Part shown: one piece after another, positions 1 to 5,706 of the stretch
How the letters are laid out: each line of letters starts with the position of its first letter
Position numbering within the stretch: the first letter of the stretch is position 1
Source: a virus
Taxonomy: Duplodnaviria; Heunggongvirae; Uroviricota; Caudoviricetes
DNA: 5,706 nt
Strand: one strand, 5' to 3'
Virus record (IMG/VR): IMGVR_UViG_2690316184_000001
Span: 1-5,706 of that record
The notes under the pieces: model-generated
The model's database searches: none
Seen by the model: the letters and a program-made list of their open reading frames with translations, nothing else
What the model was told of the DNA's origin: nothing
Position numbers and translations under genes: made by a program

Positions 1-58
1 AGCGGGCTTGTAATGGGTTAAGTGATAACAGATGTCTGGAAATATAGGGGCAAATCCA
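1..58 (+). mobile_element. Right terminal end of an IS2-like (IS3-family) insertion sequence; the element body lies beyond the left edge of the window
   Basis: Positions 18-58 (TTAAGTGATAACAGATGTCTGGAAATATAGGGGCAAATCCA) match the IS2 right inverted repeat as I recall it. Lambda int homology on the - strand stops exactly at 59, directly abutting the repeat end. Only 58 bp are visible, so identity rests on the terminal repeat alone. Confidence 0.65.
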
Positions 59-208
59 CTGTATAGCTTCAGTGATTGCGATTCGCCTGTCTCGGCCTAA
101 TCCAAACTCTTTACCCGTCCTTGGGTCCCTGTAGCAGTAATATCCATTGTTTCTTATATAAAGGTTAGGGGGTAAATCCCGGCGCTCATGACTTCGCCTT
201 CTTCCCAT
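59..208 (-). pseudogene. int: Integrase Int, 5' fragment only (codons 1-50), truncated by the IS insertion
   Basis: The - strand translation from ATG at 208..206 reads MGRRRSHERRDLPPNLYIRNNGYYCYRDPRTGKEFGLGRDRRIAITEAIQ, the lambda Int N-terminus as I recall it. The start lies 23 bp inside the 3' end of xis, as in lambda. After codon 50 the sequence becomes the IS2-like terminal repeat. Confidence 0.85.
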
Positions 209-404
209 TTCTGATCCTCTTCAAAAGGCTACCTGTTACTGGTCGATTTAAGTCAACCTTTACCGCTGATTCGTGGAACAGATACTCTCTTCCATCCTTA
301 ACCGGAGGAGGGAATATCCTGCACTCGCGTACCCATCGACGAACTGTTTCAAGGCTTCTTGGGCGTCGCTGGCGTGCGTTCCACTCCTGAAGTGTCAAGT
401 ACAT
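186..404 (-). CDS. xis: Excisionase Xis (72 aa)
   Basis: Six-frame ORF 186..404 (-) translates to MYLTLQEWNARQRRPRSLETVRRWVRECRIFPPPVKDGREYLFHESAVKVDLNRPVTG..LLKRIRNGKKAKS, essentially lambda Xis from memory. The classic 23-bp xis/int overlap is present. Confidence 0.95.
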   Translation of the reverse strand: MYLTLQEWNARQRRPRSLETVRRWVRECRIFPPPVKDGREYLFHESAVKVDLNRPVTGSLLKRIRNGKKAKS

Positions 405-431
405 CGCAAAGTCTCCGCAATTACACGCAAG
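390..431 (-). promoter_or_regulatory. pI promoter region with CII activator site (TTGC-N6-TTGC) overlapping the xis start codon
   Basis: The - strand reads TTGCGTGTAATTGCGGAGACTTTGCGATGTACTTGACAC. Direct repeats TTGC (430..427) and TTGC (420..417) are separated by 6 nt, the CII recognition architecture. The xis ATG (404..402) falls in the -10 region, consistent with the known pI transcript that makes Int but not Xis. Confidence 0.65.
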
Positions 432-452
432 AAAAAACCGCCATCAGGCGGC
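432..452 (-). terminator. Intrinsic-terminator-like hairpin on the - strand, immediately upstream of the pI CII site
   Basis: The - strand transcript reads G-CCGCC-UGAU-GGCGG-UUUUUU: a 5-bp all-GC stem, 4-nt loop and U6 tract. The short stem limits confidence. Confidence 0.4.
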
Positions 453-699
453 TTGGTGTTCTTTCAGTTCTTCAATTCGAATATTGGTTACGTCTGCATG
501 TGCTATCTGCGCCCACAGCATCCAGTGGTCATAGCAGTCGCTGATGTTCTCGGCTTCGATAACTCTGTTGAATGGTTCTCCATTCCATTCACCTGTAACT
601 CGGAAGTGCATTTATCATCGCCATAAAACAAAACTCGCCGTAGCGAGTTCAGATAAAAGAAATCCCCGCGAGTGCGAGGATAGTTACTTGTTCATATTA

Positions 700-981
700 T
701 TAATCGTCAATGTATTTTGAGCATTGTGGGCAATCATCGATCCCACAATACGATTCATATGCATCCTTTATTGCGTCGCGGGCTTCAGTAAGAGTATTGA
801 ATAAGTTGCAGCTATTATCTTTTTGATATAGGTAAGTTCCTAATTTATAAGCAGAAGAAGCATCATTTCCGCTGTCTAAAATTACATCGTTATGGATTCT
901 GCACCTTGCAAGAACTCCTGATCCCATAAGGGTCTGCATAGCCCATTGCTCTTGATCTTCACACAAATCATGAATGCTCAT
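700..981 (-). CDS. ea8.5: Ea8.5-like small Cys-rich protein (93 aa from ATG at 981)
   Basis: ORF 700..999 (-); the preferred start is ATG 981..979, preceded by GAGAGGTGTTGAA (SD-like GAGG). The 93-aa length and the 295-bp spacing to xis both match lambda ea8.5 as I recall the reference coordinates. The C-terminus is Cys-rich (CGIDDCPQC), consistent with a small zinc-binding protein. Confidence 0.7.
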   Translation of the reverse strand: MSIHDLCEDQEQWAMQTLMGSGVLARCRIHNDVILDSGNDASSAYKLGTYLYQKDNSCNLFNTLTEARDAIKDAYESYCGIDDCPQCSKYIDD

Positions 982-1080
982 TTCAACACCTCTCTTCACG
1001 TTTCACACACGTTAAGATTAACAGTGTTTTTACATGCTTTGGGAGATTTATTTTATAAAAACTCTTTTAATACAAATAGA

Positions 1081-1100
1081 TATAATAGTTCACTATTATA
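1081..1100. repeat. Perfect inverted repeat TATAATAG-N4-CTATTATA overlapping the stop codon of the DUF550/DUF551 gene, inside an AT-rich intergenic spacer (982..1095)
   Basis: Arms 1081-1088 and 1093-1100 are exact reverse complements. The stem would be all A/T, so it is a weak RNA hairpin; a protein-binding palindrome or a recombination-junction relic is equally possible. Confidence 0.5.
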
Positions 1101-1893
1101 GCTCCTTTAATCGAGGCGGTTCTGGTAGAGGCATCCAGTGGGTTACACCGCCAATTGGCTCATCGTCGTCGTACTCCAATGCGGCTATATAGAACCCGTC
1201 ACGACGAGAATAAGAAATCCCGGACATTACAATGCCATCCGAAACAACAATAATGTCACCCGTTTCTTTCGGCATTCGCTCACTACAGCTTATCCAACCA
1301 TCCGGAGTCACCGGAAGCGAGAACGGCAGCACATCTCTGTGAACAAGTTTTTGCTGTGACAGGTTATCCAGAACTTTCTGTACTGCTGCATCACCGAATA
1401 CACCAAGCGCATCTGCCATAACTCCTACAACCTGATAAGCCTCAGCGCATACCGTGGATAAACCATCCGGAATTACCGGAGAGTTGCCGGGTTCTTTAAT
1501 GTGCAAGCGAGGCTCACCATCTTTTGGTTCAGGCCACTGGCGCTCCATGTTGATCTTCAATTTATCTTCCATAGCAGCGGTAATTTCAGCATCGCTGATG
1601 CCAGCACGGCGCTGTGCATCCCACAACAGGAAATGCATATCAGCCCACTCGCTGAGATCGTCTGGTTCGGCTGCGGCTTCCAGAGCCTCTTTTGAGAGGT
1701 GTTTCAGTGGACCAATGGGGCCAACGCAGCCAAATGTGGAGTCAGACCATTTGGCATGCTCGTGGCGAATCAGTTCGCGTTCCAGTGATGCCAGTGCAAT
1801 TCGTGCCAGTTCCATTTGTTCGCCACGAGTAAGCCCGTTTTCAAGCGGATTTTTAATGAACAATTCAATACGTTCTTTGGTAATAGTGGTCAT
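1096..1893 (-). CDS. Two-domain phage protein: N-terminal MazG-like all-alpha NTP pyrophosphohydrolase (DUF550 type, dATP/dGTP pyrophosphohydrolase family) plus C-terminal DUF551-type domain (265 aa)
   Basis: ORF 1096..1893 (-), ATG 1893..1891 preceded by AAGGACTAACAA (SD AAGGA). The N-terminal half carries the MazG-type acidic motif EALEAAAE...EWADMHFLLWD. The C-terminus ends ...GGVTHWMPLPEPP, the signature I associate with DUF551. Assignment is from motif recall, not a search. Confidence 0.6.
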   Translation of the reverse strand: MTTITKERIELFIKNPLENGLTRGEQMELARIALASLERELIRHEHAKWSDSTFGCVGPIGPLKHLSKEALEAAAEPDDLSEWADMHFLLWDAQRRAGISDAEITAAMEDKLKINMERQWPEPKDGEPRLHIKEPGNSPVIPDGLSTVCAEAYQVVGVMADALGVFGDAAVQKVLDNLSQQKLVHRDVLPFSLPVTPDGWISCSERMPKETGDIIVVSDGIVMSGISYSRRDGFYIAALEYDDDEPIGGVTHWMPLPEPPRLKEL

Positions 1894-1903
1894 TTGTTAG
1901 TCC

Positions 1904-2659
1904 TTAAACTGCTAGTTGCAATTGCATTTCAAAGCGGTCGCGTTGTTCACAATACGCAAGAGAACCAGGGCTATTGTGTGCCTCAATCCGTTCTACCATT
2001 AATGCTGCGCGTGTCTCTTTACTTGCAGGTGCATAAGCCCCAGACCAGGCTTTATCAATACCGATGTTTCGAGCGACGTTCGTACTATCTGCGCTGGCTA
2101 AGGGTAATTTTGTGAATATCAGCGGATTTAACATGCGCAATCCATGTAGTTTCGTAACCGGCTGACCATGCCCATCAACAATGTGACGAATCAGGTCTTT
2201 CATTCTGGCTACCGCAAGAGTTGGGCGCTTTACGTCATAGTCGCCACAACTACCGATAGCCACTCGCGGAAACTCATTGCACAAATGAATAAATCGCGCG
2301 TCACTTTCATTCATGTGCCACACTGGAACGCCAGCTAGTTTTCCGTGAGGCCACTCATTCAGAAGCGCATCATTTTCCTCCTCTCCGCCATCAATAATAT
2401 CCGGGATAATGGCAAAATCGAATCCTGGGTGATTCTTCCAGCGAGCAACAAACTCGTAGTAATCGCTCCAGTCGATTTTGTTTTTGCCAGCTGCTTTCCA
2501 GGCGGTGAATGCACCGTTGTCCAGCGCGAACGACTGACAGTATTCAGCCGCGAGATTGATCTGGCCTGAATGCGCAAAACTGATAAACGCATGTCGCCCT
2601 TTCCATGCTCTCATTGCGCACGTATCAGGAGTAATAGGCCCACCGTGGTAGTGAATCAT
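1904..2659 (-). CDS. tRNA-guanine-transglycosylase-fold protein lacking the Zn subdomain; candidate DpdA-like DNA 7-deazaguanine transglycosylase (251 aa)
   Basis: ORF 1904..2701 (-); the preferred start is ATG 2659..2657, preceded by AAAGGAGAGTGAG (SD AGGAGA), one nt after the upstream gene's stop. Three motifs resemble the TGT catalytic core: ALDNGAF (cf. TGT LTDSGGFQ), GFDFAIIPDII (cf. GSDIVMIFDEC) and ADSTNVARNIG (cf. FDCVMPTRNARNG, nucleophile Asp). There is no C-terminal CxCxxC...H zinc motif. Function is inferred from these motifs only. Confidence 0.5.
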   Translation of the reverse strand: MIHYHGGPITPDTCAMRAWKGRHAFISFAHSGQINLAAEYCQSFALDNGAFTAWKAAGKNKIDWSDYYEFVARWKNHPGFDFAIIPDIIDGGEEENDALLNEWPHGKLAGVPVWHMNESDARFIHLCNEFPRVAIGSCGDYDVKRPTLAVARMKDLIRHIVDGHGQPVTKLHGLRMLNPLIFTKLPLASADSTNVARNIGIDKAWSGAYAPASKETRAALMVERIEAHNSPGSLAYCEQRDRFEMQLQLAV

Positions 2660-2660
2660 C

Positions 2661-3068
2661 TCACTCTCCTTTGATGCGAATGCCAGTAGCGCGGATTGCA
2701 TCGATGACTTCAGAAACTTTGTATGCCATTACCGTTTGGTAATCATCGTGAAAATCTGTTCGATGAAGCATGCTGCTACGTTCCGGGAGCAGTATTTCCC
2801 GCGCTTCCAGTTCTGCAATGCGCTTTTTTGCTGCTTCCAGTTCATCCAGTAATTCCAGCACGGTAGCCGGATTAGCCTTGGCAACAAAATCCCGGACTGG
2901 CTTACAATCAATCTCCGCAATGGGTTGATTCGATGTGTAGCCATGCTGTCTTGTATAACTACCGTGACGAATAACGAAAAAATCACCATTTATTTTTTTA
3001 GCCTGCCACTTATCTTCACCGGCTTTCTCTGCCGCTTCACGCAGTGCCTGAGAGTTAATTTCGCTCAC
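2661..3068 (-). CDS. Ea22-like family protein (135 aa), shorter than the 182-aa lambda Ea22
   Basis: ORF 2661..3068 (-). The ATG (3068..3066) overlaps the orf73 stop (ATGA coupling). The N-terminus MSEINSQALREAAEKA and a coiled-coil-like stretch LELLDELEAAKKRIAELEAR resemble prophage proteins annotated ead/Ea22-like. The gene occupies the position of ea22 in the lambda gene order. Confidence 0.55.
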   Translation of the reverse strand: MSEINSQALREAAEKAGEDKWQAKKINGDFFVIRHGSYTRQHGYTSNQPIAEIDCKPVRDFVAKANPATVLELLDELEAAKKRIAELEAREILLPERSSMLHRTDFHDDYQTVMAYKVSEVIDAIRATGIRIKGE

Positions 3069-3286
3069 TTCGAACCTCTCTGTTTACTGATAAGCTCCAG
3101 ATCCTCCTGGCAACTTGCACAAGTCCGACAACCCTGAACGACCAGGCGTCTTCGTTCATCTATCGGATCGCCACACTCACAACAATGAGTGGCAGATACA
3201 GTCTGGTAGTTCAGACGACGCATTTTTATTGCTGTGTTGCGCTGTAATTCTTCAATTTCTGATGCTGAATCAATGATGTCTGCCAT
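3065..3286 (-). CDS. orf73: TraR/DksA-family C4 zinc-finger protein (73 aa), lambda Orf73-like
   Basis: ORF 3065..3286 (-), MADIIDSASEIEELQRNTAIKMRRLNYQTVSATHCCECGDPIDERRRLVVQGCRTCASCQEDLELISKQRGSK. It has two Cys pairs (C-C-E-C ... C-R-T-C) about 17 residues apart, and the 73-aa size and position match lambda orf73, a known TraR homolog. Confidence 0.75.
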   Translation of the reverse strand: MADIIDSASEIEELQRNTAIKMRRLNYQTVSATHCCECGDPIDERRRLVVQGCRTCASCQEDLELISKQRGSK

Positions 3287-3341
3287 CTTCCATTAATCCC
3301 TGAATTGTTGGTTAATACGCTTGAGGGTGAATGCGAATAAT

Positions 3342-3363
3342 AAAAAAGGAGCCTGTAGCTCCC
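3342..3363 (-). terminator. Intrinsic-terminator-like hairpin between the orf61-region ORF and orf73
   Basis: The - strand transcript reads G-GGAGC-UACAG-GCUCC-UUUUUU-AUUAUU: a 5-6 bp GC-rich stem, 5-nt loop and U6 tract. Confidence 0.5.
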
Positions 3364-3384
3364 TGATGATTTTGCTTTTCATGT

Positions 3385-3666
3385 TCATCGTTCCTTAAAG
3401 ACGCCGTTTAACATGCCGATTGCCAGGCTTAAATGAGTCGGTGTGAATCCCATCAGCGTTACCGTTTCGCGGTGCTTCTTCAGTACGCTACGGCAAATGT
3501 CATCGACGTTTTTATCCGGAAACTGCTGTCTGGCTTTTTTGATTTCAGAATTAGCCTGACGGGCAATGCTGCGAAGGGCGTTTTCCTGCTGAGGTGTCAT
3601 TGAACAAGTCCCATGTCGGCAAGCATAAGCACACAGAATATGAAGCCCGCTGCCAGAAAAATGCAT
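3385..3666 (-). CDS. Small pL-operon protein in the lambda orf61 position; start codon uncertain (ATG 3666 gives 93 aa, ATG 3600 gives 71 aa starting MTPQQENALR...)
   Basis: ORF 3385..3666 (-). The internal ATG at 3600..3598 overlaps the stop of a 27-codon hydrophobic ORF (ATGA), suggesting the shorter form may be the translated one. The frame that lambda annotates as orf61 (by my coordinate recall) hits TGA at 3669..3667 here, so the gene structure may differ from the reference. Confidence 0.55.
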   Translation of the reverse strand: MHFSGSGLHILCAYACRHGTCSMTPQQENALRSIARQANSEIKKARQQFPDKNVDDICRSVLKKHRETVTLMGFTPTHLSLAIGMLNGVFKER

Positions 3667-3676
3667 TCAGTGGTTG

Positions 3677-3868
3677 TCATACCTGGTCTCTCTCATCTGC
3701 TTCTGCTTTCGCCACCATCATTTCCAGCTTTTGTGAAAGGGATGCGGCTAACGTGTGAAATTCTTCGTCTGTTTCTACTGGTATTGGCACAAACCTGACT
3801 CCAATTTGAGCGAGGCTATGTGCCATCTCGATACTCGTTCTTAACTCAACGGGAGATGCTTTGTGCAT
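3677..3868 (-). CDS. orf63: Lambda orf63-like small protein (63 aa)
   Basis: ATG 3868..3866, translation [63 protein letters not shown]. It is 192 bp, the same length as lambda orf63, with a 28-bp overlap with orf60a as in lambda. The frame is open further upstream to ATG 3883, so the start is not certain. Confidence 0.7.
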   Translation of the reverse strand: MHKASPVELRTSIEMAHSLAQIGVRFVPIPVETDEEFHTLAASLSQKLEMMVAKAEADERDQV

Positions 3869-4026
3869 ACAGCCCCCCCCCATTTATTATTTATCTCCTC
3901 AGCCAGCCGCTGTGCTTTCAGGGGATTTCGGATTACAGAAAGGCCGGGAAATACCCAGCCTCGCTTTGTAACGGAGTAGACGAAAGTGATTGCGCCTACC
4001 CGGATATTATCGTGAGGATGCGTCAT
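3841..4026 (-). CDS. orf60a: Lambda orf60a-like small protein (61 aa here; 60 aa in reference lambda by my recollection)
   Basis: ORF 3841..4032 (-); the preferred ATG is 4026..4024, which overlaps the exo stop (ATGA) as in lambda. Translation is [61 protein letters not shown]. Confidence 0.7.
3873..3881. repeat. Homopolymer tract C9 (G9 on the coding strand) inside orf60a, just upstream of the orf63 start
   Basis: Nine consecutive C at 3873-3881, read directly. The tract encodes the W-G-G of orf60a and doubles as a G-rich SD for orf63. Confidence 0.9.
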
Positions 4027-4703
4027 CGCCATTGCTCCCCAAATACAAAACCAATTTCAGCCAGTGCCTCGTCCATTTTTTCGATGAACTCCGGCACCAT
4101 CTCGTCAAAACTCGCCATGTACTTTTCATTCCGCTCAATCACGACATAATGCAGGCCTTCACGCTTCATGCGCGGGTCATAGTTGGCAAAGTACCAGGCA
4201 TCTTTTCGCGTCACCCACATGCTGTACTGCACCTGGGCCATGTAAGCCGATTTTATTGCCTCGAAACCACCGAGCCGGAATTTCATGAAATCCCGGGAGG
4301 TAAACGGGCATTTCAGTTCAAGGCCGTTGCCGTCACTGCATAAACCATCGGGAGAGCAGGCGGTGCGCATATTTTCGTCGCGATAGATGATCGGGGATTC
4401 AGTAATATTCACGCCGGAAGTGAATTCAAACAGGGTTCTGGCGTCGTTCTCGTACTGTTTTCCCCAGGCCAGCGCCTTAGCATTAACTTCCGGAGCCACA
4501 CCGGTGCAAACCTCAGCCAGCAGGGTGTGGAAGTAGGACATTTTCATGTCAGGCCACTTCTTTCCTGAGCGGGGCTTTGCTATCACGTTGTGAACTTCTG
4601 AAGCGGTGATGACGCCGAGCCGTAATTTGTGCCATGCATCATCCCCCTGTTCGACAGCTCTCACGTCGATCCCGGTACGCTGCAGGATAATGTCCGGTGT
4701 CAT
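4023..4703 (-). CDS. exo: Lambda exonuclease (Red alpha, Exo), 226 aa, apparently intact
   Basis: ORF 4023..4703 (-), [65 protein letters not shown]...GFVFGEQWR. This is full-length lambda Exo from memory. The ATG overlaps the bet stop (GCATGA). Confidence 0.97.
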
Positions 4704-4899
4704 GCTGCCACCTTCTGCTCAGTGGCTTTCTGTTTAAGGAATCCAAGAGCTTTCACTGCTTCGGCCTGTGTCAGTTCTGACGATGCGCGAATGTCGCGGC
4801 GAAATATCTGGGAACAGAGCGGCAATAAGTCGTCATCCCATGTTTTATCCAGGGCGATCAGCAGAGTGTTAATCTCCTGCATGGTTTCATCGTTAAGGG
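4700..4899 (-). pseudogene. bet: bet (Red beta) 3' remnant: only the last ~66 codons remain, and no in-frame ATG precedes the internal Met at 4882
   Basis: The - strand frame reads ...[67 protein letters not shown], the Beta C-terminus. Upstream of about 4899 the sequence switches to the gam 5' end, and an in-frame stop lies at 4927..4925. Confidence 0.85.
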
Positions 4900-5045
4900 G
4901 GGTAGTGAATGCTTTTGCTTGATCTCAGTTTCAGTATTAATATCCATTTTTTATAAGCGTCGACGGCCTCACGAAACATCTTTTCATCGCCAATAAAAGT
5001 GGCGATAGTGAATTTAGTCTGGATAGCCATAAGTGTTTGATCCAT
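4893..5045 (-). CDS. kil: Kil (host cell-division inhibitor), 50 aa here with the C-terminus altered by the deletion junction (47 aa in lambda by recollection)
   Basis: ATG 5045..5043 preceded by CAGGAGTCCCAAAAA (SD AGGAG). Translation is MDQTLMAIQTKFTIATFIGDEKMFREAVDAYKKWILILKLRSSKSIHYPP*. There is a 32-bp overlap with the cIII 3' end, as in lambda. The 92-aa six-frame ORF 4893..5171 is this frame extended upstream through cIII in another frame. Confidence 0.8.
   Translation of the reverse strand: MDQTLMAIQTKFTIATFIGDEKMFREAVDAYKKWILILKLRSSKSIHYPP
4903..4947 (-). pseudogene. gam: gam 5' remnant: first 15 codons (MDINTETEIKQKHSL), then out-of-frame fusion to bet 3' sequence (29-codon ORF in total)
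   Basis: ATG 4947..4945; the - strand reads ATG GAT ATT AAT ACT GAA ACT GAG ATC AAG CAA AAG CAT TCA CTA, then CCCCCC TTAACGATGAAACC, which is bet-derived. The gam frame terminates at TGA after 29 codons. Confidence 0.85.
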
Positions 5046-5178
5046 TTTTTGGGACTCCTGGCTGATTAAGTATGTCGATAAGGCGTTTCCATCCGTCACG
5101 TAATTTACGGGTGATTCGTTCAAGTAAAGATTCGGAAGGGCAGCCAGCAACAGGCCACCCTGCAATGGCATATTGCAT
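5014..5178 (-). CDS. cIII: CIII (FtsH inhibitor that stabilises CII), 54 aa
   Basis: ATG 5178..5176 preceded by AAGGAGCACACC (SD AAGGAG, 6-nt spacing). Translation is MQYAIAGWPVAGCPSESLLERITRKLRDGWKRLIDILNQPGVPKNGSNTYGYPD*, lambda CIII from memory. It is absent from the six-frame track because it is shorter than 60 aa. Confidence 0.9.
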   Translation of the reverse strand: MQYAIAGWPVAGCPSESLLERITRKLRDGWKRLIDILNQPGVPKNGSNTYGYPD

Positions 5179-5204
5179 GGTGTGCTCCTTATTTATACAT
5201 AACG

Positions 5205-5227
5205 AAAAACGCCTCGAGTGAAGCGTT
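5205..5227 (-). terminator. Intrinsic-terminator-like hairpin between ea10 and cIII (at the position I would expect lambda tL3; name tentative)
   Basis: The - strand transcript reads AACGCUUC-ACUC-GAGGCGUU-UUUCG: about an 8-bp stem with one G.U pair and a 4-nt loop, with the run of U beginning inside the 3' arm. Confidence 0.4.
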
Positions 5228-5250
5228 ATTGGTATGCGGTAACGCCGCGC

Positions 5251-5619
5251 TCAGGCGGCTTTGATAGTCATATCATCTGGATCAAATATTCCTGATGTAT
5301 CGATATCGGTAATTCTTATTCCTTCGCTACCATCCATTGGAGGCCATCCTTCCTGACCATTTCCATCATTCCAGTCGAACTCACACACAACACCATATGC
5401 ATTTAAGTCGCTTGAAATTGCTATAAGCAGAGCATGTTGCGCCAGCATGATTAATACAGCATTTAATACAGAGCCGTGTTTATTGAGTCGGTATTCAGAG
5501 TCTGACCAGAAATTATTAATCTGGTGAAGTTTTTCCTCTGTCATTACGTCATGATCGATTTCAATTTCTATTGATGCTTTCCAGTCGTAATCAATGATGT
5601 ATTTTTTGATGTTTGACAT
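5251..5619 (-). CDS. ea10: Ea10-like protein (122 aa)
   Basis: ORF 5251..5619 (-), ATG preceded by TATGAGGATATGAATAG (SD GAGGA). The 122-aa length and the 72-bp spacing to cIII both match lambda ea10 by my coordinate recall. Confidence 0.8.
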   Translation of the reverse strand: MSNIKKYIIDYDWKASIEIEIDHDVMTEEKLHQINNFWSDSEYRLNKHGSVLNAVLIMLAQHALLIAISSDLNAYGVVCEFDWNDGNGQEGWPPMDGSEGIRITDIDTSGIFDPDDMTIKAA

Positions 5620-5639
5620 CTATTCATATCCTCATAGAT

Positions 5640-5667
5640 AAAAAATCGCCCTCACACTGGAGGGCAA
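5640..5667 (-). terminator. Strong intrinsic terminator on the - strand upstream of ea10 (lambda tL2-region terminator; name tentative)
   Basis: The - strand transcript reads UU-GCCCUC-CAGUGU-GAGGGC-GA-UUUUUU: a 6-bp GC stem, extendable to 8 bp with U.G and U-A pairs, a 6-nt loop, and U6 directly after the stem. Confidence 0.6.
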
Positions 5668-5706
5668 AGAAGATTTCCAATAATCAGAACAAGTCGGCTC
5701 CTGTTT

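Follow-up and report, generated by a model that had tools for sequence, protein, structure and literature searches.

A 960-bp deletion joining the 5' end of gam to the 3' end of bet in a decayed lambda-like prophage of Escherichia coli

In phage lambda, the genes exo, bet, gam, kil and cIII make up the Red/Gam region (exo-bet-gam-kil-cIII, NC_001416 31348-33463), and red- and gam-minus derivatives of this phage exist. The cryptic lambdoid prophages of E. coli, such as DLP12, Rac and Qin in K-12, decay via successive deletions together with IS insertions. With regard to the proteins, GamS comprises residues 41-138 of the long form of Gam (PMC5218532). The C-terminal domain of Red-beta is a three-helix domain ordered from T195, which suffices for binding to lambda Exo through contacts at L223, I227, F249, L250, Q226, R229, Q252, K253 and E256, and which Red-beta also needs for binding to SSB (Caldwell et al. 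2019, PMC6393309).

To place a related locus among these systems, we analyzed a stretch of 5,706 nucleotides (IMG/VR record IMGVR_UViG_2690316184_000001, positions 1 to 5,706), hereafter the window. Its Red/Gam region is like that of lambda in gene order, orientation and sequence, with an identity of 97.4% on the exo side and 98.6% on the kil side, and with 44 and 11 mismatches to NC_001416 in the two blocks around a deletion junction. As in lambda, Exo is full length, its start overlaps the bet stop, and kil, cIII and ea10 are kept. Unlike lambda, the window lacks 960 bp, carries a substitution that turns the kil stop TAA into TAC, and has non-lambda genes between xis and exo. The closest intact prophage is that of strain S1-CAM-01-C (NZ_CP145718.1). 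It is integrated downstream of ybhC at the attachment site used here, shares the accessory genes and the run of six G, and is 99.2% and 100% identical to the two flanks of the junction. It is the best available model of the ancestor; it also retains sieB and the downstream early genes past ral. Phage 2G7b (LR595866) shows the same 960-bp offset, the same G6 run and a 54-aa Kil. Both S1-CAM-01-C and 2G7b retain the 960 bp, with a Bet of 261 aa, a GamL of 138 aa and a Kil of 54 aa.

BLAST comparison with lambda, phage 2G7b and S1-CAM-01-C divided the window into two collinear blocks, 59-4896 and 4895-5706, and the spacing between both blocks in the alignments was exactly 960 bp in all three references. 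An earlier note on this DNA, made from its letters alone, had proposed that a deletion of about 1 kb (about 960 bp) fused the 5' end of gam to the 3' end of bet, and had suggested a pairwise alignment to lambda bet-gam-kil as a check; this alignment confirmed the proposal and gave exact breakpoints. The junction lies at 4895-4896 (no strand assigned), where the BLAST blocks overlap by 2 bp, an AA microhomology (TT on the minus strand) that is present in both parental flanks. The missing DNA is equivalent to 32222-33181 of lambda (±2 bp), and with it were lost bet codons 1-197, the 5-bp bet-gam spacer and gam codons 18-138; the breaks thus fall at gam codon 17/18 and bet codon 197/198. With the breakpoint marked by a slash, the parental sequence is CATCGTTAA/CCGGAG on the bet side and CAGGGAA/GGGGGG (also written CAGGGAA/GGGGGGTAGTG) on the gam side, and the junction in the window reads GTTTCATCGTTAA/GGGGGGTAGTG. 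Read on the minus strand, 4947-4903 is ATGGATATTAATACTGAAACTGAGATCAAGCAAAAGCATTCACTA, which encodes MDINTETEIKQKHSL, the start of GamL, and represents the first 45 nt of the lambda long gam frame; after 4903 come CCCCCC (4902-4897), TT (4896-4895) and then AAC GAT GAA ACC ATG CAG, that is, bet codons 198 onward. Neither an IS end nor an att-like site nor a longer repeat was present at the 960-bp deletion junction. The collinear flanks, the 2-bp overlap and the lack of IS, att or long repeat are the features of an illegitimate, microhomology-level deletion. Chance is no concern for the junction, because the alignment result is deterministic.

The G6 run (C6 on the coding strand; no strand assigned) directly adjoins the junction at 4897-4902, where the earlier note had placed it as part of a C/G-rich joint. 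The position stands, but the run was not made at the junction: alignment to the intact relatives identified it as ancestral gam/kil sequence, with GGGGGG in intact S1-CAM-01-C and 2G7b and GGGGGT at that place in lambda. Since the intact relatives already have the run, we rejected the idea that it is added or junction-templated sequence.

What remains of gam is a 5' remnant at 4897-4947 (minus strand), which covers codons 1-17 of the GamL frame (MDINTETEIKQKHSLPP); Met41, at which GamS begins, is lost along with the Gam domain in its entirety. The gam-derived stretch is thus 51 nt (17 codons) plus 2 ambiguous nt, rather than the 15 codons (45 nt) that had been read at first. In the same way, the C-terminus of bet is retained as expected, but the 3' remnant at 4700-4894 (minus strand) holds 64 full codons (N198-A261) plus the stop, not about 66. 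The gam, kil and bet frames are all different at the junction, and therefore the fusion gives only a 29-aa peptide in the gam frame, and M202 is the first start in the bet frame. By translation, the out-of-frame ORF made by the fusion spans 4858-4947 (minus strand) with 29 codons, MDINTETEIKQKHSLPPLTMKPCRRLTLC plus stop, and has no Pfam match; the sole ATG-started ORF in the bet remnant encodes 60 aa (M202-A261, 4700-4882). Both ORFs would be by-products of the deletion. That bet is broken here is already known, since RefSeq annotates the remnant as [quoted passage not shown].

The neighboring exo (4023-4703, minus strand) encodes an intact lambda exonuclease of 226 aa (Pfam YqaJ, E=2.9e-29) with five substitutions relative to lambda Exo. 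The bet stop (4702-4700) overlaps the exo ATG in an ATGA at 4703-4700, in agreement with the earlier description of exo as intact and still coupled to the bet stop. On the other side of the junction, kil (4893-5045, minus strand) encodes 50 aa ending in ..SIHYPP (Pfam Lambda_Kil, E=2.5e-20), and the RefSeq kil of E. coli APEC O78 (L001 20294-20446) corresponds to exactly this interval. Upstream of kil in the former pL operon follow cIII (5014-5178, minus strand), intact according to the RefSeq annotation, and ea10 (5251-5619, minus strand), which lies upstream of both kil and cIII.

The length of Kil reflects two successive changes. In the intact relatives, the lambda kil stop TAA is TAC owing to an A-to-C substitution (GGGGGT vs GGGGGG), and therefore their Kil extends to 54 aa (..SIHYPPSLFS), compared with 47 aa in lambda. 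The 960-bp deletion took the later kil stop, and the bet sequence GTTAAC gave a new TAA across the junction (4895-4893), therefore Kil has 50 aa in the window, four residues fewer than in the ancestor and three more than in lambda. It had been proposed that Kil gained three residues (..SIHYPP) because its natural stop lay in the deleted gam DNA; the gain holds relative to lambda, whereas relative to the 54-aa ancestor Kil was shortened, and the lambda TAA was lost through the substitution common to the intact relatives, not through the deletion. A comparison with lambda only sets the breakpoint two codons off and gives the wrong cause for the altered length of Kil, which is a caution for reference-based reading.

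The domains of Bet and Gam were then located with Pfam. The RecT domain covers residues 24-183 of the intact Bet homologue and the Gam domain residues 42-139 of the intact Gam translation, and both fall wholly within the deleted segment, in agreement with the earlier statement that the locus has no Beta and no Gam. Of the lambda Red module, the exonuclease of the YqaJ/lambda Exo family is present (226 aa), the annealing protein with the RecT/Red-beta N-terminal DNA-binding domain is absent (codons 1-197 deleted), and the GamS RecBCD-inhibitor domain is absent, with GamL codons 1-17 alone left. Neither the bet remnant (198-261) nor the gam-frame remnant had any Pfam match, including to RecT. 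Since both domains lie inside the lost 960 bp, the locus is predicted, on its domain content, to be unable to provide annealase or RecBCD-inhibitor activity; the Red pathway would be dead because no annealase remains, and RecBCD would be uninhibited.

The bet remnant does match PDB entries 6m9k and 8tfu, "Recombination protein bet" (E about 1e-38), and all the Exo-contact residues listed above are encoded in it (residues 198-261). Compared with the C-terminal domain that Red-beta has in lambda, the remnant shows a single difference, A255T, which is common to the intact relatives. Unlike the crystallised domain, it is probably not an evolved stand-alone gene, and a start at M202 would drop residues 195-201. 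No Shine-Dalgarno-like sequence was seen before M202.

The prophage context of the junction was drawn from genomes 100% identical over window 59-5706, of which two carriers, APEC O78 and VE-V10-F, were examined. In both strains, as well as in TD225-C4 (NZ_CP035860.1), the prophage lies between ybhC and ybhB/bioA, which is the lambda attachment site. In APEC O78 and VE-V10-F, quuD, the terminase large subunit, the tail-tip protein and Bet are all annotated as incomplete, cI, cro, O and P are missing, as are head and tail-shaft genes, and copies of IS2 or IS1 are inserted, the IS1 within lom. Integration at the attachment site and the loss or truncation of essential lytic genes are both features of a defective lambdoid prophage. 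The lambda homology stops at lambda 34401 after ral and is followed by a 3' fragment of the antiterminator Q gene (quuD); therefore sieB, N and pL are absent, and so are the immunity region and the genes for replication. In APEC O78, this ral/quuD' scar is located at L001 21517/21518, and a further scar at L001 28592/28593 is formed where a truncated large terminase gene (A) abuts a truncated tail-tip gene (J). A porin gene (annotated ompC), bor, lom, the lysis cassette, kil, int, xis and the intact exo are retained. Like the cryptic lambdoid prophages, this element shows several internal deletions, truncated essential genes, IS2/IS1 insertions and a few accessory genes that are kept; unlike DLP12, Rac and Qin, it sits at the lambda attachment site itself and retains int, xis and an intact exo.

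Given this state of the prophage, the exo, kil and cIII genes that remain are probably transcribed barely, or weakly at best, because pL and N are missing, no sigma-70-like site is seen and there are two terminator-like hairpins upstream. Expression driven by pL with N antitermination requires a region outside the window; APEC O78, whose sequence matches window 59-5706 at 100% identity, has neither pL nor N, and we infer the same absence for the genome from which the window came. A consensus scan of the coding strand over window 4000-5706 found no sigma-70-like site, which is a weak negative. The same type of scan detected a terminator-like hairpin with a T run at 5208-5227 (minus strand), between ea10 and cIII and upstream of kil and exo, and another terminator-like hairpin at 5667-5646 on the coding (minus) strand, upstream of kil.

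To define where the junction occurs, a 651-bp query was searched against complete E. coli genomes. Of these 5426 genomes, 21 gave a full-length match at 100% identity, in every case in the chromosome, and the carriers include APEC O78, ACN002 and two O78:H4 APEC strains. Their sources are chickens, ducks, a pig, a dog and humans, with poultry isolates in the majority. The earlier note had also suggested looking for the junction in other genomes and known vectors; apart from these 21 chromosomes, no junction-spanning record was present among phages and none among plasmids, and an exact 30-mer scan of GTDB species-representative genomes gave no match. The junction match in IMG/VR is a single 7.9-kb contig, 99.97% identical to the APEC O78 chromosome, and not a phage. 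The ral-to-quuD' scar occurs in the same 21 genomes as the junction and in TD225-C4.

Taken together, we consider the junction to be an ordinary natural scar of prophage decay, a loss-of-function deletion inherited vertically (probability about 0.93). One illegitimate, microhomology-level deletion of 960 bp would have occurred in a lambda-like prophage resident at the lambda attachment site, in a group of E. coli that includes APEC O78 and related, mostly poultry, isolates, and it would then have been passed on vertically. A single event followed by vertical inheritance is suggested because the carriers have the same site and the same scars (two examined) and because an intact relative occupies the same site; the vertical part in particular is inferred from the shared chromosomal position and scars. 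Prophage decay was one of two origins first offered for this locus, and it is borne out by the 21 natural isolates and the other scars in two carriers, while the second, a deliberate red/gam-minus laboratory construct such as a lambda vector or engineered lysogen, hardly deserves credence. It is true that the left breakpoint lies inside the HpaI site GTTAAC of bet. However, no restriction site was recognised where the deletion ends on the right, a 2-bp microhomology forms the joint, and the 44 and 11 mismatches to NC_001416 mean that the flanks are not lambda. Moreover, the 21 carriers are wild isolates of chicken, duck, pig, dog or human origin, the junction lies within a multiply decayed prophage at the lambda attachment site (two carriers), and phage and plasmid records lack it. 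An assembly or sequencing artefact is just as implausible: nothing specific speaks for it except that the window starts in an IS2 end, a typical site of contig breaks, and the identical junction was recovered in 21 independently assembled complete genomes and one IMG/VR contig. Lambdoid phages are mosaic, and gam homology stops within about 15 bp of this place in about half of the matching E. coli records, so that a naturally short arrangement of the phage lineage, not a deletion, might be imagined. We regard this as very improbable, given that the leftovers are truncated, mutually out-of-frame pieces of bet and gam without a RecT or Gam domain, that the short form appears in no phage record, and that the closest relative, which is integrated at the same attachment site and matches both flanks at 99-100% identity, has the extra 960 bp.

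Slightly more room, though still little, is left for a deletion that was selected rather than neutral. Such an event would have discarded Gam and Beta, preserved kil, cIII and exo, and possibly released a free Red-beta C-terminal mini-protein able to bind Exo or SSB. The remnant 198-261 keeps all the listed Exo-contact residues of a domain sufficient for lambda Exo binding, and the kil stop lies 10 nt before the M202 ATG, which makes termination followed by reinitiation conceivable; moreover, the independent deletion in TD225-C4 likewise ends at the kil 3' end with kil preserved. Against this stand the absence of pL and N, the upstream terminator-like hairpins and the lack of a visible Shine-Dalgarno-like sequence before M202, and exo and the bet remnant are dispensable because TD225-C4 has lost both. 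All 21 copies are identical, and therefore they carry no signal of purifying selection either way. If it is true that selection kept the kil/cIII block, the leftover exo and the Bet C-terminal ORF might be more than debris.

The deletion of TD225-C4 is a separate event of about 5.1 kb that runs from the interior of int to window 4903, with a 2-bp microhomology (TA). Its site, L007 10950-10960 in that genome, is equivalent to window 4902/4903. This deletion ends 7 bp away from the 960-bp junction, across the G6 run, and restores a Kil of lambda length (47 aa). Both deletions near the G6 run thus have 2 bp of microhomology and leave kil with a stop codon. In addition, in about half of 3238 matching E. 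coli records, the gam homology ends at the equivalents of window 4900-4911 (S1-CAM-01-C L004 8799-8810), and beyond that point a different gene, "phage encoded cell division inhibitor", stands in place of kil. Since half of the matching records switch there, the kil stop and the C6 run are also a module boundary of lambdoid prophages. It is conceivable, though rather doubtful, that the C6/G6 run, where the kil stop and the 5' end of gam lie, is a recurrent breakpoint, either as a mechanical homopolymer hotspot or through selection keeping the kil/cIII block; hotspot, selection on kil and coincidence were weighed here on two deletions.

Several further features of the window were recorded. Positions 1-58 are the terminal 58 bp of IS2 (identical to APEC O78 L001 16131-16188), joined to int at about codon 50, and this IS2-int junction (58/59) was found in none of the complete E. 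coli genomes. In APEC O78-type genomes, an IS2 copy is located at window 792 inside an ea8.5-like gene, where the window has no IS2. The IS2-int junction is either a private IS2 insertion of the source strain or the mark of a chimeric contig joined at the border of an IS. The stretch from xis to the orf61/63/60a block (window 700-3070) contains non-lambda accessory genes, all common to the S1-CAM-01-C prophage: an ea8.5-like ORF, two ORFs of 265 aa, of which one is annotated as a dATP/dGTP pyrophosphohydrolase-domain protein and the other as a hypothetical protein of 251 aa, and genes for an Ea22-like protein and a TraR/DksA zinc-finger protein. Nine C in a row stand at 3872-3880, in an orf60a-like (DUF1317) gene, and the alignment to S1-CAM-01-C has a single gap; the gene is 186 nt long in the window-identical genomes and 183 nt in the intact relative, which suggests a possible change of length at the homopolymer run.

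With only 21 of 5426 complete genomes having it, the junction is a candidate PCR or sequence marker for the group of strains that carry it. Along with the ral-to-quuD' scar, IS2 insertions and the larger deletion in TD225-C4, it also forms a small worked example of stepwise prophage decay. TD225-C4 is the one genome with the ral-to-quuD' scar but not the junction, and because its larger deletion covers the junction site, it is uninformative on the order of the decay events. For APEC O78-type strains, the finding would mean that the lambda-like element at their lambda attachment site is unable to supply Red recombination or RecBCD inhibition, which matters to anyone assuming endogenous recombineering functions in these strains.
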